From Thermoplasmatota archaeon (lineage in GTDB: Archaea; Thermoplasmatota; E2; DHVEG-1), in the NCBI GenBank assembly GCA_030601705.1, contig JAUWBM010000001.1, positions 3,473-67,472 on the forward strand: a stretch of 64,000 bases of DNA. Direction: 5' to 3'. Shown here piece by piece: positions 47,180 through 61,406 of this stretch (position 1 is the stretch's first letter; every line of letters starts with the position of its first letter). A program made the position numbers and the translations under genes. A model generated the notes under the pieces. It was not told where the DNA came from. It did no database searches and saw nothing but the letters and a program-made list of their open reading frames with translations.

Positions 47180-48679
47180 ATGGCTACCTCTGCAACTAAA
47201 AATAAAAAACAAAAAAACATAAAAAAACCTGTTAAGCCTAAAAAAGGTATTTCTATCAAAAATCAAAAGAAAAAAGAAATGTTAAAATCTACGGTGGATA
47301 AAACTGTCAAAGCAAAGAAGCTGAAAGAAAAAATGGTTCCTCCGCCACCTAAAAAACAGAAGAAGAAGGAAAAGCCTGCAAAGATTAAAAAAACAAATGA
47401 TATCCGCACCAAAAAGAAGAAAGAAACCTTGAAATCTACTAAGGGTAAAGCTGAGAAGTTAGAATTAAAAATGGTTCCTCCGCCACCTAAAGAAGAAGAT
47501 GAGCCAAAAGAATGCAAAAAGATAAGATCAGAGATAAACGAAATTTTGAAAGATAGATTTCTTCCTAGACACGTAGTTGATAATATTGTAGAATGGGTTG
47601 CTAGGGATAAAAAACTTGAATCAAAATTGAAAATTATAATTGATCGAGTATTGGCTGATTATAGTAAAAATCTAATTGATCCAACTGAAGCATGTGGCAT
47701 GGTAGGTGCACAAAGTATTGGAGAGCCTGGAACGCAAATGACGATGAGAACTTTCCACTACGCAGGTGTAGCAGAAATTAACGTTACTTTGGGCTTACCA
47801 AGGCTCATAGAAATTGTTGATGCAAGATCTATACCGTCAACTCCGATGATGAATATCTATCTCAGAGATGAATATAAGGTAAATCCTGATCTAGCAAAAG
47901 AAATTGCAAATAAAATTGAAATTACAACACTTACAGACGTAGCAGATATTGAAATGGATTTAATTAGTTTAATTACCCATATTAAACCAAACAAAAAAAC
48001 AATGAATAAAAAGGGATTAACATTAGAGGAAATATTGGGGAGATTAAAAACAGTCAGGAAGACAGATGCCCACATAGAAAAAAACGCCATTAAAATAACA
48101 TTAGATGACCCGGGTTATAAAAATCTTCAGAGTGTTAACGAAACGCTTAAAAAATTAAAAATTAAAGGTATCGACGGGATAAAACGTGTTATCATAAGAA
48201 AGGAACCTGATGAAGGATATGTAATATACAGTGAAGGGAGTAATCTCAAAGAGGTTTTAGAAATCGAGGGTGTTGATCCATATAAGACATCAACAAATGA
48301 CATTCATGCTGTCGCTAGAGAACTCGGAATAGAGGCTGCAAGGAACATGATAATTCAGGAGGCACACAATACTCTATCAGAACAAGGTTTGAATGTAGAT
48401 TTAAGACACATTATGATTGTAGCAGATGTTATGACTGCAGATGGCACTGTGAAAGCTATAGGAAGGCATGGTGTAAGCGGTGAAAAGAGCTCTGTATTAT
48501 CCAGAGCTGCATTTGAAATAACAGTGAATCATTTACTATTAGCTAGCCAGAGAGGCGAATCTGATAAACTCAATGGTGTGGCAGAAAACATCATTGTTGG
48601 GCAGCCTGTTAACTTAGGTACGGGCGCTGTTGAGCTTGCTATGGGCCATAGTAAAAGTAAAAAGAAGAAGGGAAAGTAA
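47180..48679 (+). CDS. rpoA2: DNA-directed RNA polymerase subunit A'' (Rpo1C) with a ~120-aa Lys/Pro-rich N-terminal extension containing an internal 46-aa repeat
   Basis: Conserved A'' core from ~aa 125 ([29 protein letters not shown]). The N-terminus carries KKKEMLKST...KMVPPPPKK and KKKETLKST...KMVPPPPKE. Confidence 0.9.
47263..47500. repeat. two ~138-bp direct repeat units encoding the Lys-rich / MVPPPPK motif in the rpoA'' 5' region
   Basis: Identical 21-mer atggttcctccgccacctaaa at 47333 and 47471. Confidence 0.6.
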
Positions 48680-49407: not shown

Positions 49408-49493
49408 TTCGCCTTGTTTATTGCAATAATTTTTAAATAGAGTTCTATGTTCAGTAGAGGGGGGTATTCCTGAAAATAAAAAACAAATCTGAC

Positions 49494-52400
49494 ATGCCTT
49501 TTGATGCTGAATCCATCATTGGTGGAAAAAGCGGCGTTCTCAGGGGCTTAGTTAAGGAATATAAAATAGAAATAAAAGGAAAGCCTGAATGTTCTAATGC
49601 GTGCCCAGCAGGGATCAATGTAAAGGCCTATGTAAATCTCATTGCAAACAGGAAATTCGAAGAAGCTGTAGAAGTAATACGTCAGGCTAATCCATTTCCT
49701 GCTGTCTGTGGGAGGGTCTGTACTCGACCGTGTGAAGATAGCTGCGAACATGGAGTAGAAGGAGATCCTGTTTCTATTCGTGCCTTAAAGAAGTACGCCT
49801 CTGATTATGAACTTGCCCGCCGACCTCTTGTGATGGAACCTTGTAAAACAGTTTACGACGAAAAAGTAGCAATAATTGGAGCTGGACCTGCGGGTCTTTC
49901 AGCTGCCGTAGATCTTGTACGAATGGGATATCCTGTCACTGTTTTTGAGACGAAAAAAGACCCAGGGGGAATGCTCCGCTATGCCATTCCACCATATCGT
50001 CTTCCAGATAGAATTCTAAAAAGAGAGATTGACTGGATAAAAGGGCTAGGAGTAAATATCAAAACAGGAACAAAAGTTGATGATTCTGTAACCTTATTTA
50101 AGAAAGGATATTCTGCCATACTCATTGCAACAGGTGCACCAAAATCGTTTTCTCTCGGTATTGGAGGAGAAGAATCGGAAGGAGTTATCGATGCTTTGTG
50201 GTTCTTACGGGGAATCTGTAATAATAGTCCAATAAAAATGGAAGGAAACGTAGTTGTAATCGGTGGCGGATCAACTGCGTTTGATGCTGCTAGATCTGCA
50301 ATTCGACTTGGAGTCAAGAAGGTCACATTGGCATATCGTCGAGGAATAGAAGAGATGCCTGCAGAAAGGGAAGAGGTTGAACACGCCCAAGAGGAAGGCG
50401 TTGAAATATTAACGTTAGCAATTCCCAATAAAATAATCATAAAAGGTGGGAAAGTTACAGGAGTAGAATTTCTTAAAGCAAAGCTTGGTGAGCCTGATGA
50501 ATCCGGGCGAAGAAGACCGGTTCCCATAAAAGGAAGCGAGTTCGTCCTAAACGCTGATATTATTATTCCAGCTATTGGAGCAAGACCTGATGTTGGAACA
50601 GTAGGAAATTGCAAAATTACTGCCCAAAATGGAAGGATAAACGTTAAAGATAAAGGATGTACAATAGTAAAAGGAGTTTTTGCCGCAGGTGACGTTGAAA
50701 CAGGACCATCCTCTGTGGTAAAGGCTATTGGACGTGGACATGAAGCAGCAGTCGGTATTAATACATATTTTAGAGGGGCTGAATATACTGAAATAGGAGA
50801 TTCGTCAAAATCTGTACCAATTGTCCTTGAACCACCAACATATTCTCGCTCCCTCCATTCTCCTAAAAGATTGAGGAAAGAAGAAAGGGTCGCATCATTC
50901 AATGAAGTTGAAGGATCATTTGCAGATTTTGAGATAATAGATGAAGCATCTCGATGCTTTACCTGCGGACCATGCGATGTTTGTACTGTTTGTCTTCCAA
51001 ACTGTAATCACAAACAAGTAGTTGCTCAAACAGAAGAAACAACGTTTCTTTTGAAAGTTCCTTCTGACCTATCTTCTATAGTAACTGAAAAGGGGCCATC
51101 TACAGTTAAGGTAAAAGCCAACGGAAATGAAAAATCAATGACGCTTCACAGTCTCATTCCTGCAGTTGACATAGATCGTTGTATAGGTTGTGGACGATGT
51201 GAGGAAGTATGTGCCTACAAAGCTATAAGAAATGTCCTCAAAAAAGATGGAAGAATAGTTGCTGAGGTTGTTCACAACTCATGTGCATCATGCAGCGCTT
51301 GTGTATCAGCATGTCCCTCAGGTGCTATAAGTCAAGGATATATGTCTGATAAAGAAATACTATCAAGATTATATGAGAAAAAGACACCATTTGAAGGAAT
51401 TAAGGCATTGATGAGCTACTGGAGCACTCCATCACCTGCCTTTGATTATAACGGTGTCGTTGAGGTGATGTCTGCAAGAAAACCTACGCCTTCATTTCTG
51501 ATAAGATCTCTAGCACGATCGGGTAAGGGACTTCTAGTTATCGGACCTAATGAAAAAACTGGGTCGCATTATTTACCCGGGGAAGAACATCCTCTCAATA
51601 CGATTCAACAGGCAAGGAGTTTACTGAAACTTATTGGAATTTCTCCTGATAGAATACAATACAAAGCGGTCCCCAATGGTACAAATCCATCTGGACTGTT
51701 AAAAGAATTCTCAAAATCTCTTGATAAAAAGAAACTTGTCACACTCAAAGCACCATTGCCAAAATCCATCAACGGTCCATTAGGAGAATCTATGACAATC
51801 CTAAGGATTATGGGAGCAAATCCGGATATTAAACCTTCTGATAGTGTTATTCCTATTCAACCGGTAAAATCTGGGGGCACTGCCTTTTTTGAAGGATGTC
51901 TACCGATGCTCCATTGGATTGGAGAATCTCATAAATTATTTGATCTGAGTCCGACTCGCCAGGCCATATATGGTCTTATAAAAAAAATGAAGATTGATGC
52001 TGGATTCATTGAGGGTTTTTCCTGCCCTTCAAAGGGGTTACTACAGACAAAAACTGATGGTATCAAGGAAATTGTATCTAAAATTGAATCAAATAATCTT
52101 AAATCATTTAAGAAGGTAAATCCAAAAAAATTAATCCTTGGAACTCCAGAGTCTTTCTCTTCCTTTTCAAAGGAGAAATATTTTGGAACAATATCCTCTC
52201 TTCCTGATGAACTGTTAAATGTGGCAAAAAAATCAAAAGGTTTTGCCCCTATCGAGAAAACTGTATCCATTCATCGTGCTTGTGCTATAGAAAATGATCC
52301 ATTCTATGAAACCACCAAAAAGCTTCTTGATCTTATTCCGGGGCTCACAATCGTTGAACTAAATGGGCAATGTGAACACAGAGGATTAGAGAATTTTGAT

Positions 52401-52595
52401 GGCAACTCAAAGGAGACTGCCTTACATCTAATGAAAGAGGCAGTCAGTAAAGATGTAGATATGATCATATGCACCTCTCCATATTGTGAGTCTCATCTCT
52501 TGCTGAGTCAAAGAAAGGGATCTTGGCGTTCGGTAGATATTGAAGTAACAGATGTGTATAAAGTGCTTCTTTCTTCTTTAGAAGGTGATGCTTAA
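49494..52595 (+). CDS. large multidomain Fe-S flavoprotein: NfnB/GltD-like NAD(P)H oxidoreductase + 2x[4Fe-4S] ferredoxin + Cys-depleted MvhD-like + CCG-like domains (HdrL-like fusion)
   Basis: N-terminus CSNACPAGINV...CGRVCTRPCEDSC plus FAD/NAD(P) GxGxxG motifs (IIGAGPAGLSAA; VVVIGGGSTAFDAA), as in the GltD/SudA family. Mid region CIGCGRCEEVC...CASCSACVSACP. The later segment resembles MvhD/FlpD with its cysteines substituted; C-terminus Cx..CP-like. Confidence 0.7.
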   Translation: MPFDAESIIGGKSGVLRGLVKEYKIEIKGKPECSNACPAGINVKAYVNLIANRKFEEAVEVIRQANPFPAVCGRVCTRPCEDSCEHGVEGDPVSIRALKKYASDYELARRPLVMEPCKTVYDEKVAIIGAGPAGLSAAVDLVRMGYPVTVFETKKDPGGMLRYAIPPYRLPDRILKREIDWIKGLGVNIKTGTKVDDSVTLFKKGYSAILIATGAPKSFSLGIGGEESEGVIDALWFLRGICNNSPIKMEGNVVVIGGGSTAFDAARSAIRLGVKKVTLAYRRGIEEMPAEREEVEHAQEEGVEILTLAIPNKIIIKGGKVTGVEFLKAKLGEPDESGRRRPVPIKGSEFVLNADIIIPAIGARPDVGTVGNCKITAQNGRINVKDKGCTIVKGVFAAGDVETGPSSVVKAIGRGHEAAVGINTYFRGAEYTEIGDSSKSVPIVLEPPTYSRSLHSPKRLRKEERVASFNEVEGSFADFEIIDEASRCFTCGPCDVCTVCLPNCNHKQVVAQTEETTFLLKVPSDLSSIVTEKGPSTVKVKANGNEKSMTLHSLIPAVDIDRCIGCGRCEEVCAYKAIRNVLKKDGRIVAEVVHNSCASCSACVSACPSGAISQGYMSDKEILSRLYEKKTPFEGIKALMSYWSTPSPAFDYNGVVEVMSARKPTPSFLIRSLARSGKGLLVIGPNEKTGSHYLPGEEHPLNTIQQARSLLKLIGISPDRIQYKAVPNGTNPSGLLKEFSKSLDKKKLVTLKAPLPKSINGPLGESMTILRIMGANPDIKPSDSVIPIQPVKSGGTAFFEGCLPMLHWIGESHKLFDLSPTRQAIYGLIKKMKIDAGFIEGFSCPSKGLLQTKTDGIKEIVSKIESNNLKSFKKVNPKKLILGTPESFSSFSKEKYFGTISSLPDELLNVAKKSKGFAPIEKTVSIHRACAIENDPFYETTKKLLDLIPGLTIVELNGQCEHRGLENFDGNSKETALHLMKEAVSKDVDMIICTSPYCESHLLLSQRKGSWRSVDIEVTDVYKVLLSSLEGDA

Positions 52596-54679
52596 TGCTT
52601 GAGGCAAGGATAAAAAAACATCCGATACTATCTATCGATAAAACATCGGCATCTGTAACATTCACCTTCAATGGGAAGAAACTCACTGCAAAACCAGGAG
52701 AGATGATCTCTTCTGCATTATTTGCTCATGGGATACACATATTTGGCCATCACAAAAAAGACAAGTCTCCCCAGGGAATGTTCTGTGCAAATGGTCAGTG
52801 CTCTCAGTGCTTGGTTATTGTCGATGGCATTCCTGTAAAATCATGTATTACTCCGGTAAAAGAAGGCATGGAAGTAAGATCCTTAGATGGCCTACCTACT
52901 CTTCTTAAAGATGATGAGGTTGTCAAAATCGGTGGTGAGATACCTGTTGTCGATACACCTGTTCTTATCATTGGAGGCGGACCTGCAGGTATGTCTGCCG
53001 CTATAGAATTAGGGCAAATGGGCATATATTGTATCATTTGTGACGATAAACAAGAATTAGGAGGAAAGCTTAGCCTTCAGACTCATAACTTCTTTGGTTC
53101 TATGAGAGACTGTTTTGCTGGGAGTCGTGGAATAGATATAGGTTACGATCTTGCATCTCTTGTGAATGAGAATAAGAACTTGGAAGTTTGGACAAATTCT
53201 CCTGTTGTAGGTGTTTTTGCTGATGGACTTGTTGGAGTCGTGAAAGATGGCAGCTATACTCTTGTGAAACCCGAGAGAATATTAGTAACTGCAGGTGCAC
53301 GAGAAAAGACCTTGGCATTCCACGGTTGCGATTTACCTGGCGTCTATGGTGCAGGTGCATTTCAGACTCTTGTCAATAGGGATCTTATTAAACCTACTGA
53401 CAAATTGTTCATTGTTGGAGGGGGAAATGTAGGTCTAATAGGTGCATATCACGCCTTACAGGCTGGTATTGATGTCATTGGTATTGTAGAAGCCCTTCCA
53501 GAATGTGGTGGATACAAAGTCCATCTTGATAAAATCAAGCGTTTGGGAATTCCGGTTTATACTTCTCATACGGTATTAAGAGCTGAAGGAAAGGATCATC
53601 TTGAACGGGTTGTCATATCAGAGATAGATAATAAGTTCAGACCAATTAAGGGAACTGAAGCGGTTTTTGAGGCAGATACTTTGCTCATTGCTGTAGGATT
53701 GACTCCTGTGAATGAACTAAAGAAACAGGCAGAAGAATTTGGTTTAAAAACATATGCTGCAGGAGACGCTGACATCATCGCAGAAGCATCTGCTGCTATG
53801 TTCTCTGGACGTATAACTGCCAGAGCTGTGCTTAAAGATATGGGATACGACGTTGAGGTTCCACCCGAATGGGAAGAAATGGTGAATATTCTCCGTAGTA
53901 GACCAGGTCCAGTGAAAGAATCTCATCTATTTCCAAAAGATAAAGCTGTGTATCCGATTATCCGATGTGCGCAAGAAATTCCCTGTAATCCCTGCATGGA
54001 AGCGTGTGTTCTCCAAAGTATTAAGATAAAAGAGCCATCAATGATGGGCAGACCACAATTTGATGGAGATTGTCTTGGATGTGCACAATGTGTTGCTATA
54101 TGTCCTGGACTTGCTATAACACTTGTTGATAAAGGATATGATAAAACAAAGAGAACAGCCAGGGTTGTCATCCCTTGGGAGATGCCTGAGGGAACCATAA
54201 AGATAGGGCAAGAAGTAACGACAACAGGGCTAGAAGGAGAAATAATAGGAAAAGGTAAGGTTATTGCCATAAAAGAGTCTAAATGGCAAAATAGGAGGCT
54301 TTTGGTATCATTGGAGGTCCCTTACAATAAAGCAGACCTAGTAGCAGGAATCAGGATAAAGGAACCTAGAAGTAAAAAGATTGGTGCCACTGTCAAACAA
54401 ATTGATGATGGAGAAGTGATTATCTGTCGATGTGAACGTGTCGCTAAAAGTGATATTATTGATTATATCAAGAAGACTGGTACAAGGGATGTAAATGCTG
54501 TAAAGGCAGCACTTCGTGTTGGAATGGGGCCTTGCGGGGGAAAGACCTGTACCGAGCTCATTATGCGTGTGTTTAGAGAACTTGGAATTGACCTGAAAGA
54601 CGTAGAACCACCTGTTGATCGCCCATTCACGCAAGAAGTGCCCCTCAAAGCGTTTCTGAAGGAGGGTGATGACCAGTGA
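52595..54679 (+). CDS. sarcosine-oxidase-alpha / opine-oxidase-A / HcnA-HcnB-like fused subunit (2Fe-2S ferredoxin + FAD/NAD(P) oxidoreductase + 2x[4Fe-4S] + BFD-like [2Fe-2S])
   Basis: N-terminal CANGQCSQC...C 2Fe-2S; LIIGGGPAGMSAA and FIVGGGNVGL dinucleotide motifs; CNPCMEAC...CLGCAQCVAICP ferredoxin; CRCE...GPCGGKTC BFD-like. Start overlaps the upstream stop. Confidence 0.75.
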   Translation: MLEARIKKHPILSIDKTSASVTFTFNGKKLTAKPGEMISSALFAHGIHIFGHHKKDKSPQGMFCANGQCSQCLVIVDGIPVKSCITPVKEGMEVRSLDGLPTLLKDDEVVKIGGEIPVVDTPVLIIGGGPAGMSAAIELGQMGIYCIICDDKQELGGKLSLQTHNFFGSMRDCFAGSRGIDIGYDLASLVNENKNLEVWTNSPVVGVFADGLVGVVKDGSYTLVKPERILVTAGAREKTLAFHGCDLPGVYGAGAFQTLVNRDLIKPTDKLFIVGGGNVGLIGAYHALQAGIDVIGIVEALPECGGYKVHLDKIKRLGIPVYTSHTVLRAEGKDHLERVVISEIDNKFRPIKGTEAVFEADTLLIAVGLTPVNELKKQAEEFGLKTYAAGDADIIAEASAAMFSGRITARAVLKDMGYDVEVPPEWEEMVNILRSRPGPVKESHLFPKDKAVYPIIRCAQEIPCNPCMEACVLQSIKIKEPSMMGRPQFDGDCLGCAQCVAICPGLAITLVDKGYDKTKRTARVVIPWEMPEGTIKIGQEVTTTGLEGEIIGKGKVIAIKESKWQNRRLLVSLEVPYNKADLVAGIRIKEPRSKKIGATVKQIDDGEVIICRCERVAKSDIIDYIKKTGTRDVNAVKAALRVGMGPCGGKTCTELIMRVFRELGIDLKDVEPPVDRPFTQEVPLKAFLKEGDDQ

Positions 54680-55854
54680 TCAAAGAATACGATGTGATTG
54701 TTATCGGAGCGGGTTCTGTTGGAGCTCCTACTGCTTATTTCCTTTCTGAGGCAGGTTTTAAGGTACTGGTTGTTGAGAAACTTTCTTCATCTGGACAGGG
54801 TCAAAATAAGGCAGCAATTGGAGGAGTTAGAGCCACTCATTCAGATCCTGCAAAAATACAAATTTGTCTCCAAAGTATAGATATTTTCTCCAATTGGAAG
54901 GAAAAAACGGGTACAGATATTGGATGGAAGGAAGGAGGTTATTGTTTTCCGGTATATCGAGAGAAAGAAGAGAATATCCTCAAATCTATATTATCTATTC
55001 AAAAGAAATACGGGCTCGATATTGATTGGGTTGATGATGAGGGAATAAAGAAAGTTGTACCAGGTATAAACGAAAAAGGGCTCATTGGAGGTACTTTTTC
55101 ACCTAATGACGGTCAGGTAAGTCCTTTACTCTCTTCAGAGTCTTTTACTAATGAGGCAATGAAGCTTGGGGCTGAGTATAGATATCGTGAAAGCGTTATT
55201 GGTCTCTTAACCGAAGGCGATAAAGGAAATATGTTAGTAAAAGGAATCAAGACAAAAAAAGGAGAATATAAGGCTTATAATGTAGTTAACGCTGCTGGAG
55301 CCCACGCTTCTGCTATATGTAAGATGGCAGGGCTAGATATACCGGTAAATCCGGATAGTCACGAGGCAGGAATAACCGCCCCTGTTGAACCGTTTCTTGA
55401 CCCACTTGTTGTTGATCTACGTCCTGGGGCTGAAGGGAAGACAGTAAACTTCTACTTCGGTCAGAACTTAGAGGGACAAATCATATTTTGTTATACGCCA
55501 AGTAAGATCTTTGCTGGAGAAGACAGGAGATCTACGCCAGAATTTATGCCCATAATTGCTAGAAGATTAGTAAACCTCATTCCAAGATTCAAAAATCTTA
55601 CTATTAGAAGGATATGGAGAGGACTCTATCCAATGACTCCAGATGGGGTTGCAGTAGTTGGTAAACCATCGGGAGTTGAAGGTTTGTACCTTGGGGTTGG
55701 AATGTGTGGACAGGGTTTCATGATGGGACCTGGAGTTGGTTTAAACCTTGCAAATATTATAGCCAAAGGGCCACCCATCATAGAAAATGAAGTGCTCAAC
55801 CTTTTGAGTCCCGACAGAAACTTCTACAGCGGAAAGAAAGAAGCTTTGAAATAG
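54676..55854 (+). CDS. FAD-dependent oxidoreductase (DAO family; sarcosine-oxidase-beta / proline-dehydrogenase-beta-like)
   Basis: YDVIVIGAGSVGAPTAYFLSEAGFKVLVVEK GxGxxG start and C-terminal GxG.G; overlaps the upstream gene by 4 nt. Confidence 0.8.
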   Translation: MIKEYDVIVIGAGSVGAPTAYFLSEAGFKVLVVEKLSSSGQGQNKAAIGGVRATHSDPAKIQICLQSIDIFSNWKEKTGTDIGWKEGGYCFPVYREKEENILKSILSIQKKYGLDIDWVDDEGIKKVVPGINEKGLIGGTFSPNDGQVSPLLSSESFTNEAMKLGAEYRYRESVIGLLTEGDKGNMLVKGIKTKKGEYKAYNVVNAAGAHASAICKMAGLDIPVNPDSHEAGITAPVEPFLDPLVVDLRPGAEGKTVNFYFGQNLEGQIIFCYTPSKIFAGEDRRSTPEFMPIIARRLVNLIPRFKNLTIRRIWRGLYPMTPDGVAVVGKPSGVEGLYLGVGMCGQGFMMGPGVGLNLANIIAKGPPIIENEVLNLLSPDRNFYSGKKEALK

Positions 55855-57177: not shown

Positions 57178-60100
57178 TTAGTGTCGTCTGCGTCTCAAGA
57201 GTATGAATGCTACTCCAATAGCTGCAATCAGTGTTAGTAGTTCGAATCCAGGTATTCCACCCGGTACGATTTTTATGGTTAGTGTCCCGTCTTGATATGT
57301 TTCATAGCTAGCAGTAATTACGTAATTACCATCATCTGAAGGTGCTGTGAAGGTTACTTTTCCATTGTTGTCTGATGTTTTTGTAGTGCCTTCAAAGGTT
57401 ACACTTGCACCGGCTAGTCCGCTACCTTTTGCAAGCACTGTTACAGTAAATGATGAGCCTGTTTGTGGGTCCGCACTTGGTCCAACTATACTGATCTCAT
57501 ATCTCTTAATCACGGAAATTGTTTTTTCTTCAGTTGCATATCCTGTCTTTTTAGCAGTGACTGTATAAATTGCAGATTCTACTCCAGGATCAGGTACTGT
57601 GAATGTTGCCTCTCCATTTGAATCTGTCTGAGATGTAACTTGACCAAACTCGACGTCCACGCCGCTCACGGGCGTCCCTCCAGATCTAATGGTAACAGTT
57701 AAGGTTTCTCCCTCATGTATTGGGGATTTCGATACTGATATATCCAATGATTGCTTTCCTGTAACCTTTATGGTTGTATTCGTTATCACAGAGTTATCCC
57801 AGATGAGTAGTCCACCAACATATCTTACGTTTCGTGCGATTGTAACATTTAGATTCCCACTAGCTACCGGTGCAACACTTAATGTTACTTTTCCGTTCGC
57901 GTTCGTTTCTACTGGCTCGGGTTGTGATGGTATAATCCCAGCAGTAGACGGCGTAAGGGTAATATTGATCCCTGGTATTGGATTGTTATCACTATCTAGA
58001 GCAATTATTGTAATCGTATTCGCCATATTGATATAGATCTCAGATGGTTCTACTATGAAGCTGGGGAATACGATTCTGAGTTGCCCATCTGTAGTATTAC
58101 CTTCATAATTAGTATATTCACTCTGTAGGGTAACGTTTATTTTTCCTTTTACGTCTCCAGTTTCTTCTATATCAAACTCCCCATTTCCGTCCTCGTCTAG
58201 TATAAAATATTCAGTTTCAGCAGGATTTGTAGTTGTATTTGCAGCCTCATACATATTGATATATAATTTTGTGCCATCTGGTAAGGGGACACCATTGGCA
58301 TCAACGGCAGTAACAGCTACAGTAATATTATCTAACCCGATGCCACAGGTCACTGCTTCTGGTGAATATGTAATCTCGGCTCTTTCTACATCTAAAGTGA
58401 TGTTTCCATCGTGTTCATTTTCACCAGAATTATTTACTGCAGTTATTAGGAGTTCACCCCTAAAGTGTGGTATAAAATCGTCCATATACCAAATATTACC
58501 AGATTTCTCTTTTAGCGGTTCTGTCTGGATAACATCGCCATCGTTGTCAAGTATTTCAGCAGTAACTGAATCAATATCGTCAATAAGATTTCCATTTCCA
58601 TCCAAAACCTCGAATTCCCAAGCATGCTCCATACCAACAGTTAGAGTTTGATTTGCTGCATCTACAGGATCCGTAATATCAACAATCATATCATGTAAAG
58701 GAGCAACCTCAATGATATCATACATATAATATACACCTGCTTCAGCAGCTACCACGATGTACCCAACTCCTTCTTCAATATCCTCTTCAGTTACAACGAA
58801 TTCAAATCTACCCTGTTCACCACTACCCGGAGTATTATCTCCAGTAGTCTCGTTCATACATTCTATAAAAATCCAATTTTCATCATAATATGTAAGATGT
58901 ACCTCCGCGTACTGTCCATTCGCGATCTCAGCAATCACAGTTTCGGTTGATTGAACTGAAATCTCTTTATTATCTCCTTCAGACGTCGTAACAGATCCGA
59001 ATAACCCTTTGACACCAAAGTCCTTACTAACAGATGCGTTACCTGTGTCGTTATGAGCAGTTATGGTTATTGTCCCAGCAGTTTTAGGATCTATCTTTAC
59101 CGTATATATGCCGTAGTCTGGAGGTGTCATATATCCGTCTGACACCGCATCTTCTTCGTCTATTTTGATATCGAGTCCACAACCAGTTATCTCTATCGAT
59201 GCATTCTTTTCATCACTTTGATCATCACCATAAATCTGGATTGTAATTTCATTGGAGGTATTCTTCCATTGGCAGCTGGTTATCTTATTTATAGAGACCT
59301 CATCCACCATGTCATCTATAATCACGGTCATATCACCCGGAGAAACAACTTGGAAATTAACAGAACCAGTTATATTGGCTTCCAAGTCATCGATATCCGT
59401 ATAATTCTCATCATTCAATGGGTTTGTAACGATTATTGTTCCGGTACCTGTTTCATTGAATTTAATTTTGAACCTATAGTAGGCATATTTCAAAGTATCT
59501 GTAACTCCGGTGGCTACATTGGCATGGACAAGGACAACATCATCGTCATCATACTCCATATTTGTAGTTGAGTTATATGATTTAACGCCAGTGACGTGTA
59601 TCCACATTTTATCATAATGATCTCCGTCCCACGAGTTATATATTGAAACATTAATAGTCTGATTAAATCCTGAGACAAGCTCATCTGGACTTTCAACTTT
59701 TACTTTGGCGCTATCATCAGAGGCGATATCGATTGAATAATATTTTATAAAATCAGCTATATCGAGCTTATCAGTTTCATCTAATCTGTGGCTACCAACA
59801 TCACTATAAGTACCAAGACACCATGTACCTGCGCTACCGCCATTCTCATCTGTTGGTGAAATAATTGAAAATCTTCCCGTACTATATGTATTAGTGTATG
59901 TAATTAATCTATAACCGCCTTCAATTGGAGAGTATAGCGAAATGTTATATCCCTCGATGCCGTTTCCTTTCCCATCTCTCACATATCCATTAGAAATCTG
60001 GATCTCATCTCCCCATTCAAGATTTGTTGGCATAACTGCTGAAATATTTAGCTTAACAGGCACTATTTGCTCTCCATATCTAGCAGCATCCATTGTTACG

Positions 60101-60765
60101 TTTATTATATATTCTGTCTCATAGTTGCCACTATCATCGTAATCAAAGGTAATATCGACGTCCCATATACCAGTGGAAATGGATTGATGATTCCATTCCA
60201 CATCATTTGGTTCATAAAGAGTAATCGTCACAGCCTCTTCAAGAAGCATATATTTTGAACCAGTCCAGTTATAAACGTAGAAATAGAACGAATTTGGGTA
60301 ATTATAAGTTTTGTTATATACTGCATGATCGATCCAATTTCCTCCAACTTTATACTTTACATCGTATAAACTACTGATAGTTATATTCATCGCATCTAAT
60401 TGACCAGAACTGTTATGTAAAGAAATGTTCCATGTACCTAAAGGATTAACAATATTTTCTGAATCAAGATTTTTCCATCCAGGAACGTTTATCTTTATGG
60501 ATACTTCTTCATTTGCATCGGCTCTTTTGTCATCAAGATCTTTAAACCCAGTACCGTTCCATACTTTTACATAATAACGTTCATCTTCATTGAGTCCACT
60601 AGCGTTAACCCAAATAGTTTCACCGCATGTCAAGTCAAGAGTTTTAGATATCTCGTCAATTGCTGGAGCCGCTAGAGTGCTCTGAGGGACGAGTATAATT
60701 ACCGCGAGCAGTAGTATCAGCGTCATCAGTATCGGCATTAACTTACTTTTTCTTTCTTTTCTCAT
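57178..60765 (-). CDS. giant secreted cell-surface (S-layer/adhesin-like) protein with a C-terminal PGF-CTERM archaeosortase sorting signal
   Basis: Signal peptide at the chosen start (MRKERKSKLMPILMTLILLLAVIILVPQSTLAAP); many NxS/T sequons and Ig-like repeats; ends ...IPGFELLTLIAAIGVAFILLRRRRH (PGF motif + TM + basic tail). Confidence 0.7.
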   Translation of the reverse strand: MRKERKSKLMPILMTLILLLAVIILVPQSTLAAPAIDEISKTLDLTCGETIWVNASGLNEDERYYVKVWNGTGFKDLDDKRADANEEVSIKINVPGWKNLDSENIVNPLGTWNISLHNSSGQLDAMNITISSLYDVKYKVGGNWIDHAVYNKTYNYPNSFYFYVYNWTGSKYMLLEEAVTITLYEPNDVEWNHQSISTGIWDVDITFDYDDSGNYETEYIINVTMDAARYGEQIVPVKLNISAVMPTNLEWGDEIQISNGYVRDGKGNGIEGYNISLYSPIEGGYRLITYTNTYSTGRFSIISPTDENGGSAGTWCLGTYSDVGSHRLDETDKLDIADFIKYYSIDIASDDSAKVKVESPDELVSGFNQTINVSIYNSWDGDHYDKMWIHVTGVKSYNSTTNMEYDDDDVVLVHANVATGVTDTLKYAYYRFKIKFNETGTGTIIVTNPLNDENYTDIDDLEANITGSVNFQVVSPGDMTVIIDDMVDEVSINKITSCQWKNTSNEITIQIYGDDQSDEKNASIEITGCGLDIKIDEEDAVSDGYMTPPDYGIYTVKIDPKTAGTITITAHNDTGNASVSKDFGVKGLFGSVTTSEGDNKEISVQSTETVIAEIANGQYAEVHLTYYDENWIFIECMNETTGDNTPGSGEQGRFEFVVTEEDIEEGVGYIVVAAEAGVYYMYDIIEVAPLHDMIVDITDPVDAANQTLTVGMEHAWEFEVLDGNGNLIDDIDSVTAEILDNDGDVIQTEPLKEKSGNIWYMDDFIPHFRGELLITAVNNSGENEHDGNITLDVERAEITYSPEAVTCGIGLDNITVAVTAVDANGVPLPDGTKLYINMYEAANTTTNPAETEYFILDEDGNGEFDIEETGDVKGKINVTLQSEYTNYEGNTTDGQLRIVFPSFIVEPSEIYINMANTITIIALDSDNNPIPGINITLTPSTAGIIPSQPEPVETNANGKVTLSVAPVASGNLNVTIARNVRYVGGLLIWDNSVITNTTIKVTGKQSLDISVSKSPIHEGETLTVTIRSGGTPVSGVDVEFGQVTSQTDSNGEATFTVPDPGVESAIYTVTAKKTGYATEEKTISVIKRYEISIVGPSADPQTGSSFTVTVLAKGSGLAGASVTFEGTTKTSDNNGKVTFTAPSDDGNYVITASYETYQDGTLTIKIVPGGIPGFELLTLIAAIGVAFILLRRRRH

Positions 60766-61017
60766 ATATCTTTTCCTCCTAAATTTTATCCTATTTTTCG
60801 CATGAATGTCCGATTTTCCACAGTTTAATTCGCACCGCGAACCGATATGAAAATTCATAAACGCATCTAACAATTATATGAACTTTCACATCTGTGTCCT
60901 CACCGGACCCTCATTTCACCGTAAATAACTACCTTATTTAAATAAGTTGCGATTTTACTTATCTTATATACAGGTATTGGTGCAACTTTTTGATTAGGTA
61001 TAATAAATCATCATTTA

Positions 61018-61317: not shown

Positions 61318-61406
61318 CCCGCCTTAGCTCAGTCTGGCTGGAGCGGCCGGCTGTAGACCCTACGGCCGTAACCGGCAGGTCCCCGGTTCAAATCCGGGAG
61401 GCGGGA
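61318..61406 (+). tRNA. tRNA-Tyr (anticodon GTA) with a 14-nt intron after position 37
   Basis: Acceptor cccgcct/aggcggg; anticodon stem gccgg...ccggc separated by 21 nt (7-nt loop ctGTAga plus accctacggccgta, which carries ctac complementary to the anticodon); T-arm cccgg-ttcaaat-ccggg. Confidence 0.8.

Follow-up and report, generated by a model that had tools for sequence, protein, structure and literature searches.

Positions 49494-52595 (forward strand) of the DNA analyzed here hold a gene for a fusion protein of 1033 amino acids (aa), the first gene of a three-gene operon. The whole stretch, hereafter the window, comprises 64,000 nucleotides (nt) from a Thermoplasmatota archaeon (GenBank assembly GCA_030601705.1, contig JAUWBM010000001.1, positions 3,473 to 67,472), and genes for RNA polymerase B, A' and A'', L30e and NusA lie 5' of the operon. 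From the N-terminus the protein consists of an NfnB/GltD-like module, a six-cysteine motif, a 2x[4Fe-4S] ferredoxin domain, an MvhD-like domain, a linker and an HdrB-like pair of CCG domains. Below we report that the MvhD-like domain has lost the cysteines of its iron-sulfur (Fe-S) cluster, that both CCG domains have lost part of theirs, and that the domains are maintained by purifying selection. The gene and its domains are, in order:

49494-52595, forward strand: whole gene, 1033-aa fusion protein (list of open reading frames (ORFs), Pfam and NCBIfam)
49581-49817, forward strand: Fer4_20 domain, residues 30-108, [4Fe-4S]-binding N-terminal domain of the GltD/NfnB/DPD type (Pfam PF14691, E 2.2e-21)
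49863-50738, forward strand: flavin adenine dinucleotide- and NAD(P)H-binding module (Pyr_redox_2), residues 124-415, NfnB/GltD/SudA-like (Pfam PF07992, E 1.4e-31)
50955-51005, forward strand: six-cysteine motif CFTCGPCDVCTVCLPNC, residues 488-504 (sequence; kept throughout the wider family)
51156-51338, forward strand: 2x[4Fe-4S] ferredoxin domain, residues 555-615, with the motifs CIGCGRCEEVC and CASCSACVSAC (Pfam Fer4_7/Fer4_21)
51396-51728, forward strand: MvhD/FlpD-like domain, residues ~635-745, cysteine-free (Pfam FlpD at residues 655-729, PDB profile, hhalign, AlphaFold 2 (AF2) and Foldseek)
51729-51875, forward strand: linker, residues 746-794 (MAFFT and hhalign against P0046, P0048, P0053 and others)
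51876-52208, forward strand: CCG1-like domain, residues ~795-905 (hhalign, MAFFT)
52209-52592, forward strand: CCG2-like domain, residues ~906-1033 (Pfam CCG at residues 924-1002, hhalign, residue tables)

An earlier note, made from the sequence alone, had read positions 50900-52595 as "fossil" MvhD and CCG domains with replaced cofactor cysteines, kept as structural scaffolding or forming a novel variant. All peptide strings quoted in that note are present (IKALMSYW at residues 636-643, LLVIGPNEKTGSHYLPGEEH at 680-699, LLKLIGISPDRIQYKAV from 700, GFSCPSKG at 841-848 and IICTSPYCESHL at 991-1002). Its range starts one base out of frame, since codon 470 begins at 50901, and also takes in the six-cysteine motif and the ferredoxin domain.

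Profile searches and predicted structures confirmed that the likeness of the C-terminal part to MvhD/FlpD and CCG/HdrB is well above chance. Pfam FlpD (PF02662) matched with 27.7 bits when the full protein was scanned and 29.0 bits when the C-terminal part was scanned (gathering score 22.3; E 1.2e-6). Pfam CCG (PF02754) matched the isolated C-terminal part with 21.9-23.3 bits, above its gathering score of 20.6, whereas its full-length score of 18.9 bits fell below. This CCG match corresponds to CCG2 (residues 924-1002), and CCG1 was found by hhalign only. Among the 18 sequences scanned, 13 relatives gave a FlpD match (best E 1e-7) and 14 a CCG match (best E 9.4e-11). When aligned with canonical references by hhalign, the MvhD-like domain scored a probability of 97.0% (E 9.6e-11), and both CCG domains together 99.7% (E 6.6e-26, 260 columns).

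Relatives were collected in two ways. A word-indexed search of 5.8 billion proteins with the C-terminal 433 residues as query gave only 17 relatives, all of them fragments from metagenomes or from metagenome-assembled genomes (MAGs) of Thermoplasmatota. An exhaustive comparison of the family profile with 1.84 billion cluster representatives yielded 468 matches, including the canonical MvhD-HdrC-HdrB fusions P0046 and P0048 and HdrD-like proteins. Reference P0046 was validated as canonical by its ungapped match to 5ODC_D (E 5e-52), and it also matches HdrC, HdrB and EtfD. Searched against the sequences in the PDB, the family profile returned MvhD chains as its three best matches. A single-sequence search of the PDB with the C-terminal 433 aa retrieved uroporphyrinogen decarboxylase (E 0.0056) and cytochrome c, which we dismissed as noise because the family profile finds MvhD.

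The predicted structures agreed with the profiles. The AF2 model of residues 616-1033 was obtained with a mean predicted local distance difference test score (pLDDT) of 88.3 and a predicted template modeling score of 0.89, and the model of the MvhD-like part alone (residues 616-765) with a pLDDT of 80.8. In a Foldseek search of the PDB, the four best matches of the MvhD-like model were 5odh_D, 5odc_D, 7bkb_F and 8rvu_F, all MvhD or ElpC (template modeling scores 0.54-0.63, E 7e-5 to 8e-4), and the fifth-ranked match reached only E 0.027. The full C-terminal model retrieved EtfD, LutA and HdrB. The models thus display the α/β fold of MvhD, followed by a tandem of Rossmann-like CCG domains such as those of HdrB, EtfD and LutA. 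Both the profile-profile alignment and the AlphaFold model that the earlier note had proposed as checks therefore bear out the homology, and on careful alignment neither the MvhD-like domain nor the CCG pair retains a full cysteine set.

MvhD has six cysteines, and we compared the four columns that are common to canonical MvhD and the cysteine-complete relatives, i.e. those in F-x-C-x-W, M-C-S/T, G-C and D/E-C-H-Y (C13, C42, C67 and C72 of 5ODC_D). Both the multiple alignment and hhalign place S641, S660, P685 and S691 of the 1033-aa protein in these columns (codons at 51414, 51471, 51546 and 51564, respectively). Hence, none of the four columns holds a cysteine for the [2Fe-2S] cluster of MvhD. 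No cysteine occurs anywhere between residues 608 and 801, and the last 232 residues contain exactly six. The MvhD-like domain does retain the H692-Y693 pair and the subsequent helix 700-713, the equivalent of helix N76-L93 of VhuD, which is conserved here. A 9-residue segment, C(S/A)YAGADLAG, that is found after the first strand of canonical MvhD is missing from the entire family of large proteins. On this point the "fossil" of the earlier note held up completely, with homology supported by profiles and predicted structure and with all four cysteine columns substituted.

The linker that follows consists of 49 residues without any cysteine, and stands in place of the HdrC-type 2x[4Fe-4S] ferredoxin of P0046, P0048 and the HdrD-like proteins; the helix in it, GESMTILRIMGANPD, lines up with the one preceding CCG1 in HdrD-like proteins. 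From these alignments, the HdrC-type ferredoxin normally located between MvhD and the CCG pair is deleted in this protein, and the CCG domains are left without the ferredoxin that would feed their clusters.

Each canonical CCG domain carries a five-cysteine motif (CX31-39CCX35-36CXXC) that ligates a non-cubane [4Fe-4S] cluster. CCG1 retains two of the five, C802 (in FEGC) and C844; the CCG triplet has become C844-P845-S846, and the CxxC pair has become T884 and S887. CCG2 retains three of the five (C930, C960 and C998), its second cysteine being replaced by Q959 beside a 6-residue deletion and its fourth by S995, and it has an additional cysteine, C993, two residues upstream of the lost fourth one. 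Since neither domain has five cysteines, the canonical ligand set for a non-cubane cluster is absent from both. The earlier note had described a single CCG-like tail in which CCG was changed to SCP. The likeness to CCG/HdrB stands, but there are two CCG domains instead of one tail, and the SCP register was ruled out, as MAFFT and hhalign both align CCG with CPS and thereby keep the first cysteine.

Orthologs of the 1033-aa protein were found in eight genome loci of Thermoplasmatota MAGs, two complete chromosomes included, and the upstream gene order is shared in the six loci of sufficient length as well as in L001 and L002. Mean pairwise identity was 0.64 for the MvhD-like domain, 0.59 for CCG1 and 0.56 for CCG2, as compared to 0.67-0.76 for the intact cofactor domains and 0.46-0.52 for the linkers. 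The ratio of nonsynonymous to synonymous substitution rates (dN/dS, Nei-Gojobori method), calculated for the two least saturated pairs, was 0.04-0.34 in the relic domains, with the cofactor domains in the same range; in the L009/L012 pair, CCG1 and CCG2 had values as low as those of the cofactor domains. Since dN/dS is far below 1 and conservation exceeds that of the linkers, the MvhD-like and CCG domains are maintained by purifying selection and are not decaying. The gene has an uninterrupted reading frame in the window as well as in six genome loci, among them the two complete chromosomes.

These data bear on the possibility that the likeness is due to chance or composition, or that the C-terminal half is decaying non-functional sequence, a pseudogenised remnant of a fusion. 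The spurious weak matches of the single-sequence PDB search and the full-length CCG score below threshold point in that direction, and so does an ortholog that is split in two. Profile, profile-profile and two independent structure comparisons concur on the homology, however, and the low dN/dS, the conservation above the linkers and the intact frames speak against decay. Both forms of this explanation are refuted by the dN/dS values and the profile and structure comparisons, and we give them practically no credence. The split ortholog is encoded in L001 (8452-11560), a related metagenome contig, as two ORFs of 349 aa and 519 aa that are ~500 nt apart; the split reflects a frameshift, a faulty assembly or a pseudogene.

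The clade to which the window belongs comprises ~28 members, and conservation within it is informative both for the MvhD-like domain and for the HdrB-like module. In the former, the ex-ligand columns are conserved as S/S/P/S. In the latter, the six cysteines C802, C844, C930, C960, C993 and C998 are almost invariant in the clade and invariant in a six-sequence alignment; the exceptions are P0008, with Tyr at 802 and 930, and P0013, without C993 and C998. P0013 (L005, 8-1876) is the most divergent clade member, and an in-frame deletion of ~40 residues takes the last CCG2 strand including the CTSPYC cysteines, with the remaining reading frame and the downstream operon intact.

Two of these observations weigh against a purely structural role. 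Near-invariant cysteines are not obviously needed by a scaffold, and four of the six surround the former cluster pocket of CCG2; moreover, in the MvhD-like domain the serines at three of the four ex-ligand positions are strictly conserved and the loop GSHYLPxEE does not vary, which could mean a new binding function instead of simple loss. The loss of Fe-S cofactors suggested in the earlier note consequently stands for the MvhD-like domain, with none of four cysteines left, while for the HdrB-like module, with its six near-invariant cysteines, complete loss cannot be claimed.

We therefore have to consider that the HdrB-like module has been re-tooled, with the MvhD-like domain still free of cofactor. 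C930, C960, C993 and C998 would then bind a cubane [4Fe-4S] cluster, a [2Fe-2S] cluster or Zn, and C802 and C844 would be further ligands or form a redox-active dithiol facing this centre across the cleft in which HdrB binds heterodisulfide. The near-invariance of the six cysteines in the clade fits this proposal, C993 looks like a compensating ligand for the lost fourth cysteine of CCG2, and the dN/dS of CCG1 and CCG2 in the L009/L012 pair is as low as in domains that do hold cofactors. On the other hand, P0008 and P0013 dispense with C802 and C930, and with C993 and C998, respectively, the five-cysteine set is missing in both domains, and the ferredoxin that feeds HdrB is deleted. The wider family described next contributes to both sides. 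On balance, we regard a re-tooled site as a serious alternative, albeit a less probable one than a degenerate module.

From the profile search, the wider family comprises ~17 complete proteins, 900-1150 aa in length, that share this architecture. All members with source names are from Thermoplasmata or Thermoplasmatota, and the protein is apparently a Thermoplasmatota-specific enzyme. The number of MvhD cysteines in the wider family is 4, 3, 1 or 0. In a neighbor-joining tree of the N-terminal module (own script, 200 bootstraps), a basal clade has all four cysteines in every member (97% support) and the window clade has none in any (100%); further groups are a clade mixing 3, 1 and 0 cysteines (100%), a clade mixing 4 and 0 (67%), and an outgroup with four. 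Members without cysteines thus fall in three separate clades (support 100%, 100% and 67%), which implies that the MvhD cysteines were lost at least three times independently. From these sequences, the MvhD cluster is dispensable in the family while the domain is kept, a recurrence that strengthens the original "fossil" reading.

The HdrB-like module varies as well. CCG1 is unrecognizable in many lineages, and the number of CCG2 cysteines in the wider family falls from four to three, two or none, with the C-terminal fold retained. Since these cysteines are lost while domain and operon persist, the CCG2 site is dispensable for the core function of the family, which argues against re-tooling. The outgroup protein P0058, which also has a four-cysteine MvhD domain, is the only one to keep the canonical CCG2 motif. 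Its operon setting is the same, so the ancestral complex used the CCG2 site, in line with the re-tooling proposal. Most members of the wider family end in the motif G(S/A)W...V.V.D(V/I)(Y/F), present here as GSWR..VDIEVTDVY.

The wider family also helps to judge whether the MvhD-like domain might bind an Fe-S cluster or another metal through Ser641, Ser660, Ser691, His692 and Glu697/698. The strict conservation of the substituting residues and the invariant GSHYLPxEE loop in the clade would agree with this, as would the low pLDDT of the loop (~58), which is often seen for cofactor loops modelled without their cofactor. However, one of the ex-ligands is a proline (P685), the domain is totally cysteine-free, and the other cysteine-less lineages have differing residues (N, G, K, D, R, H) at the former cysteine columns, which speaks against a common new set of ligands. 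As for the HY pair, it belongs to the CHY motif of canonical MvhD too and is therefore a general feature of the fold. To our knowledge, no Fe-S site built without any cysteine has been described. We judge such non-cysteine ligation very improbable.

In the N-terminal half of the protein, the Fer4_20 domain has cysteines at positions 33, 37, 72, 76, 80 and 84 and was aligned with StnC (8oh5_C) and NfnB (4ylf_B/5jca_L), and the order of Fer4_20 followed by Pyr_redox_2 is that of an NfnB/GltD/SudA-like module. The best PDB matches were 9bov_A (2e-110), StnC 8oh5_C (5e-92) and NfnB 4ylf_B (8e-88), with further matches to 5jca_L and GltD 2vdc_G; the nearest solved structures are accordingly 9bov_A (annotated as a molybdopterin oxidoreductase), StnC, NfnB, GltD and DPD. 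The second nucleotide motif, GGGSTA, fits GxGxxA, a motif proposed for NADP(H) (PMC7483475). The six-cysteine motif is presumed from its sequence to be an additional Fe-S site. Pfam places the ferredoxin match at residues 555-612, and residues 523-726 match positions 539-749 of the 777 positions of the NCBIfam HdrA2 profile NF040770, its ferredoxin-plus-MvhD end, with 72-77 bits, as compared to a cut-off of 1100.

Two partner genes follow directly:

52595-54679, forward strand: partner gene 2, 694-aa Fe-S flavoprotein resembling the α subunit of PDH1/sarcosine oxidase (Pfam; PDB)
54676-55854, forward strand: partner gene 3, 392-aa flavoprotein of the DAO family, GTG start (Pfam DAO 2.1e-58; PDB 1y56_B 1.8e-50)

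The TAA stop of the large gene overlaps the ATG of gene 2 by one base (TAATG), and gene 2 is likely translationally coupled to it; gene 3 overlaps gene 2 by four bases. The 694-aa protein contains a Fer2_4 [2Fe-2S] domain, a Pyr_redox_2 domain, 2x[4Fe-4S]-type motifs and a BFD [2Fe-2S] domain, and matches PH1363 (1y56_A, 8.6e-21) and SoxA (2gag_A) in the PDB. For gene 3 the nearest solved relative is the β subunit of the Pyrococcus L-proline dehydrogenase PDH1, and its matches to the SoxB-family and ThiO profiles of NCBIfam are far below their cut-offs. Homologs of both the α and the β subunit of PDH1 are thus encoded together.

Fifteen loci extend beyond the large gene (L003-L011 and L015-L020, three of which end before or within the third gene), and each of them, as far as it reaches, shows the order of a large protein, a ~690-aa α-like protein and a ~390-aa DAO protein, irrespective of cysteine status. 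All 16 cluster cysteines of the α-like partner are kept in all seven orthologs compared. We had considered whether this partner compensates for the lost MvhD cluster in cysteine-less as opposed to cysteine-complete lineages; with its cluster cysteines unchanged in every compared lineage, no compensatory change is seen, and the idea was ruled out. A cysteine pair in the first nucleotide-binding region of the 694-aa protein (GIYCIICDD, residues ~146 and 149) is confined to the window clade (window, L003, L005 and L010) and absent from three more distant orthologs compared.

The P0058 operon of the outgroup is immediately preceded, in locus L019 (570-2204), by a gene encoding L-glutamate γ-semialdehyde (P5C) dehydrogenase (TIGR01236, 784 bits as compared to a cut-off of 614). 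This neighbor hints at a link to proline catabolism, and judged by its homologs the three-gene enzyme probably oxidizes proline or a similar amine. In the window, neither HdrA nor a hydrogenase is encoded next to the operon, and among the called genes adjoining it none related to heterodisulfide or quinones was noted.

Taken together, we consider it probable that the C-terminal module consists of an MvhD-like docking adaptor free of cofactor and an HdrB-like pair unable to hold canonical non-cubane clusters, in an amine dehydrogenase complex. The C-terminal 40% of the protein would descend from a module of the MvhD-HdrC-HdrB type, added by fusion on the C-terminal side of a ferredoxin domain and an NfnB/GltD-like NAD(P)H-flavin-[4Fe-4S] module. 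In known complexes, MvhD/VhuD carries a [2Fe-2S] cluster beside the bifurcating flavin (PMC12350162), and helix N76-L93 of VhuD mediates the binding of electron-input modules to HdrA (PMC13518236). The MvhD-like domain would thus have stopped carrying electrons and retained the job of docking adaptor via the helix after the former CHY motif. Since the electron role was lost repeatedly while the fold and helix 700-713 persist, we read the domain as a cofactor-free adaptor. The "structural scaffolding" of the earlier note is a proposal supported by purifying selection and by the docking precedent of VhuD/MvhD.

Together with the HdrB-like module, the MvhD-like domain may hold the large subunit on its two obligate partners, the PDH1-like α and the DAO-type β subunit. 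The HdrB-like module itself would be a degenerate remnant, incapable of HdrB chemistry and kept for the assembly of a three-subunit, NAD(P)H-linked amine dehydrogenase. Electrons would move between the amine-oxidizing flavin and NAD(P)+ via the α-subunit clusters, the ferredoxin domain, the six-cysteine motif and Fer4_20, and would bypass the relic domains.

A bolder proposal extends this scheme. The operon might encode an NfnB-type enzyme of a class not described so far, one that performs flavin-based electron bifurcation or confurcation. In it, the NfnB-like flavin would couple NADP(H) on one branch to ferredoxin, by way of the Fer4_20 clusters, and on the other, by way of the PDH-like α/β subunits, to an imine/amine couple of high potential (P5C/proline or a similar one). 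The MvhD-HdrC-HdrB module would have been captured and its redox centers shed stepwise by lineage (MvhD cysteines from 4 to 3, 1 and 0), until the electron-transfer subunit was a pure structural adaptor. We hold this to be speculative and rather unlikely. The significance of the complex would be greater if it were true that it is a new bifurcating amine/imine oxidoreductase.

Irrespective of bifurcation, the family constitutes a natural experiment in which an Fe-S electron-transfer domain turns into a cofactor-free structural element, its ligands lost at least three times while fold, operon and selection persist. Such repeated ligand loss agrees with recent structures of Hdr super-complexes, in which MvhD/VhuD serves both as an electron relay and as a docking adaptor. 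The trio of an NfnB-like fusion protein and PDH-like α and β subunits is an uncharacterized architecture that, from its gene content, would link NAD(P)H to the oxidation of an amino acid (probably proline) in uncultured archaea, and is a candidate bifurcating system. There is also a practical aspect. Some family proteins are publicly labelled "(Fe-S)-binding protein", and fragments (P0166, P0172, P0174 and P0008) bear the names "coenzyme F420-reducing hydrogenase delta subunit" or "hydrogenase iron-sulfur subunit", given solely on account of the FlpD match. Such names are wrong for cysteine-less members and could feed false inferences about hydrogen or methane metabolism in Thermoplasmatota MAGs.

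Some further features of the window were recorded. The element TTTTTAAATA (49432-49441, forward strand) lies ~55 nt upstream of the ATG at 49494, inside the 86-nt gap behind the NusA-like gene, and is a possible archaeal TATA box, in which case the three genes would have a promoter of their own. The RNA polymerase A'' ORF (47180-48679, forward strand) has a Lys-rich N-terminal extension of ~120 aa with an internal repeat, and a Lys-rich start is also present in the A'' ORFs of the relatives L009, L010 and L012. A predicted surface protein of 1231 aa (57178-60873, reverse strand) has the PGF-CTERM-like tail GGIPGFELLTLIAAIGVAFILLRRRRH; in L007 and L008, the large ORF in the corresponding place ends in the identical tail AAIGVAFILLRRRRN, and a close variant, LAALGVAFILLRRRR, occurs in L011. 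Finally, an Rfam tRNA match at 61318-61406 (forward strand) is 89 nt long, as compared to 73-74 nt for the other three in the window, and may contain an intron or a long variable arm.

Among known systems, the MvhD-like domain is closest to MvhD/VhuD/ElpC (PF02662), the [2Fe-2S] connector of Mvh-, Fdh- and Elp-Hdr complexes (5ODC_D, 7BKB_F, 8RVU_F), with which it shares the α/β fold, the profile match, the HY pair and the docking helix. It differs in that the four cysteine columns are replaced and the 9-residue segment is missing, so that the [2Fe-2S] cluster that defines MvhD is absent. Moreover, MvhD, VhuD and ElpC serve a hydrogenase or HdrA, whereas the domain described here is fused to an NfnB-like flavoprotein. 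The CCG pair is shared with HdrB, HdrD, EtfD and LutA (tandem PF02754 with non-cubane [4Fe-4S] clusters), but in neither domain is the motif intact, and the HdrC-type ferredoxin is deleted. The order of MvhD followed by a CCG pair is that of the uncharacterized P0046/P0048-type MvhD-HdrC-HdrB fusions, here without the HdrC part. The order of ferredoxin followed by MvhD recurs in HdrA2 of Methanosarcina acetivorans, an HdrA-MvhD fusion (PMC5296606); the front flavoprotein is in our case NfnB/GltD-like and not HdrA, and the MvhD cluster predicted for HdrA2 cannot form.

For the enzyme as a whole, PDH1 of Pyrococcus horikoshii (α4β4, 1Y56) provides the best solved relatives of genes 2 and 3 with its α (PH1363) and β subunits. 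In contrast to PDH1, the α-like subunit comprises 694 aa with extra [2Fe-2S], 2x[4Fe-4S]-type and BFD domains, and there is a third subunit, the NfnB-like protein of 1033 aa, that PDH1 lacks.

Relic domains have precedents in other flavin-based bifurcating complexes. In StnC/NsoC, a GltD-like module is fused to a NuoG/FdhA-like domain without formate dehydrogenase activity, and StnB has a thioredoxin-like domain with two of four cysteines changed (PMC7483475); ElpA is an FdhA homologue without the molybdopterin region (PMC12350162). StnC-type complexes thus share with the present protein the fusion of an NfnB/GltD-like NADPH module to an inherited redox domain that lacks its catalytic cofactor, and 8oh5_C aligns with residues 30-612. 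In view of these precedents the phenomenon is not new in kind. Our literature searches gave no description of this fusion or of a cysteine-less MvhD and no biochemical data on any family member, and the present case of relic domains and the enzyme architecture around it appear to be undescribed. What sets them apart from the Stn and Elp systems is that the relics are of the Hdr type (MvhD and HdrB) and that the partners are amine dehydrogenase subunits instead of NuoE/F-like or Hdr subunits.

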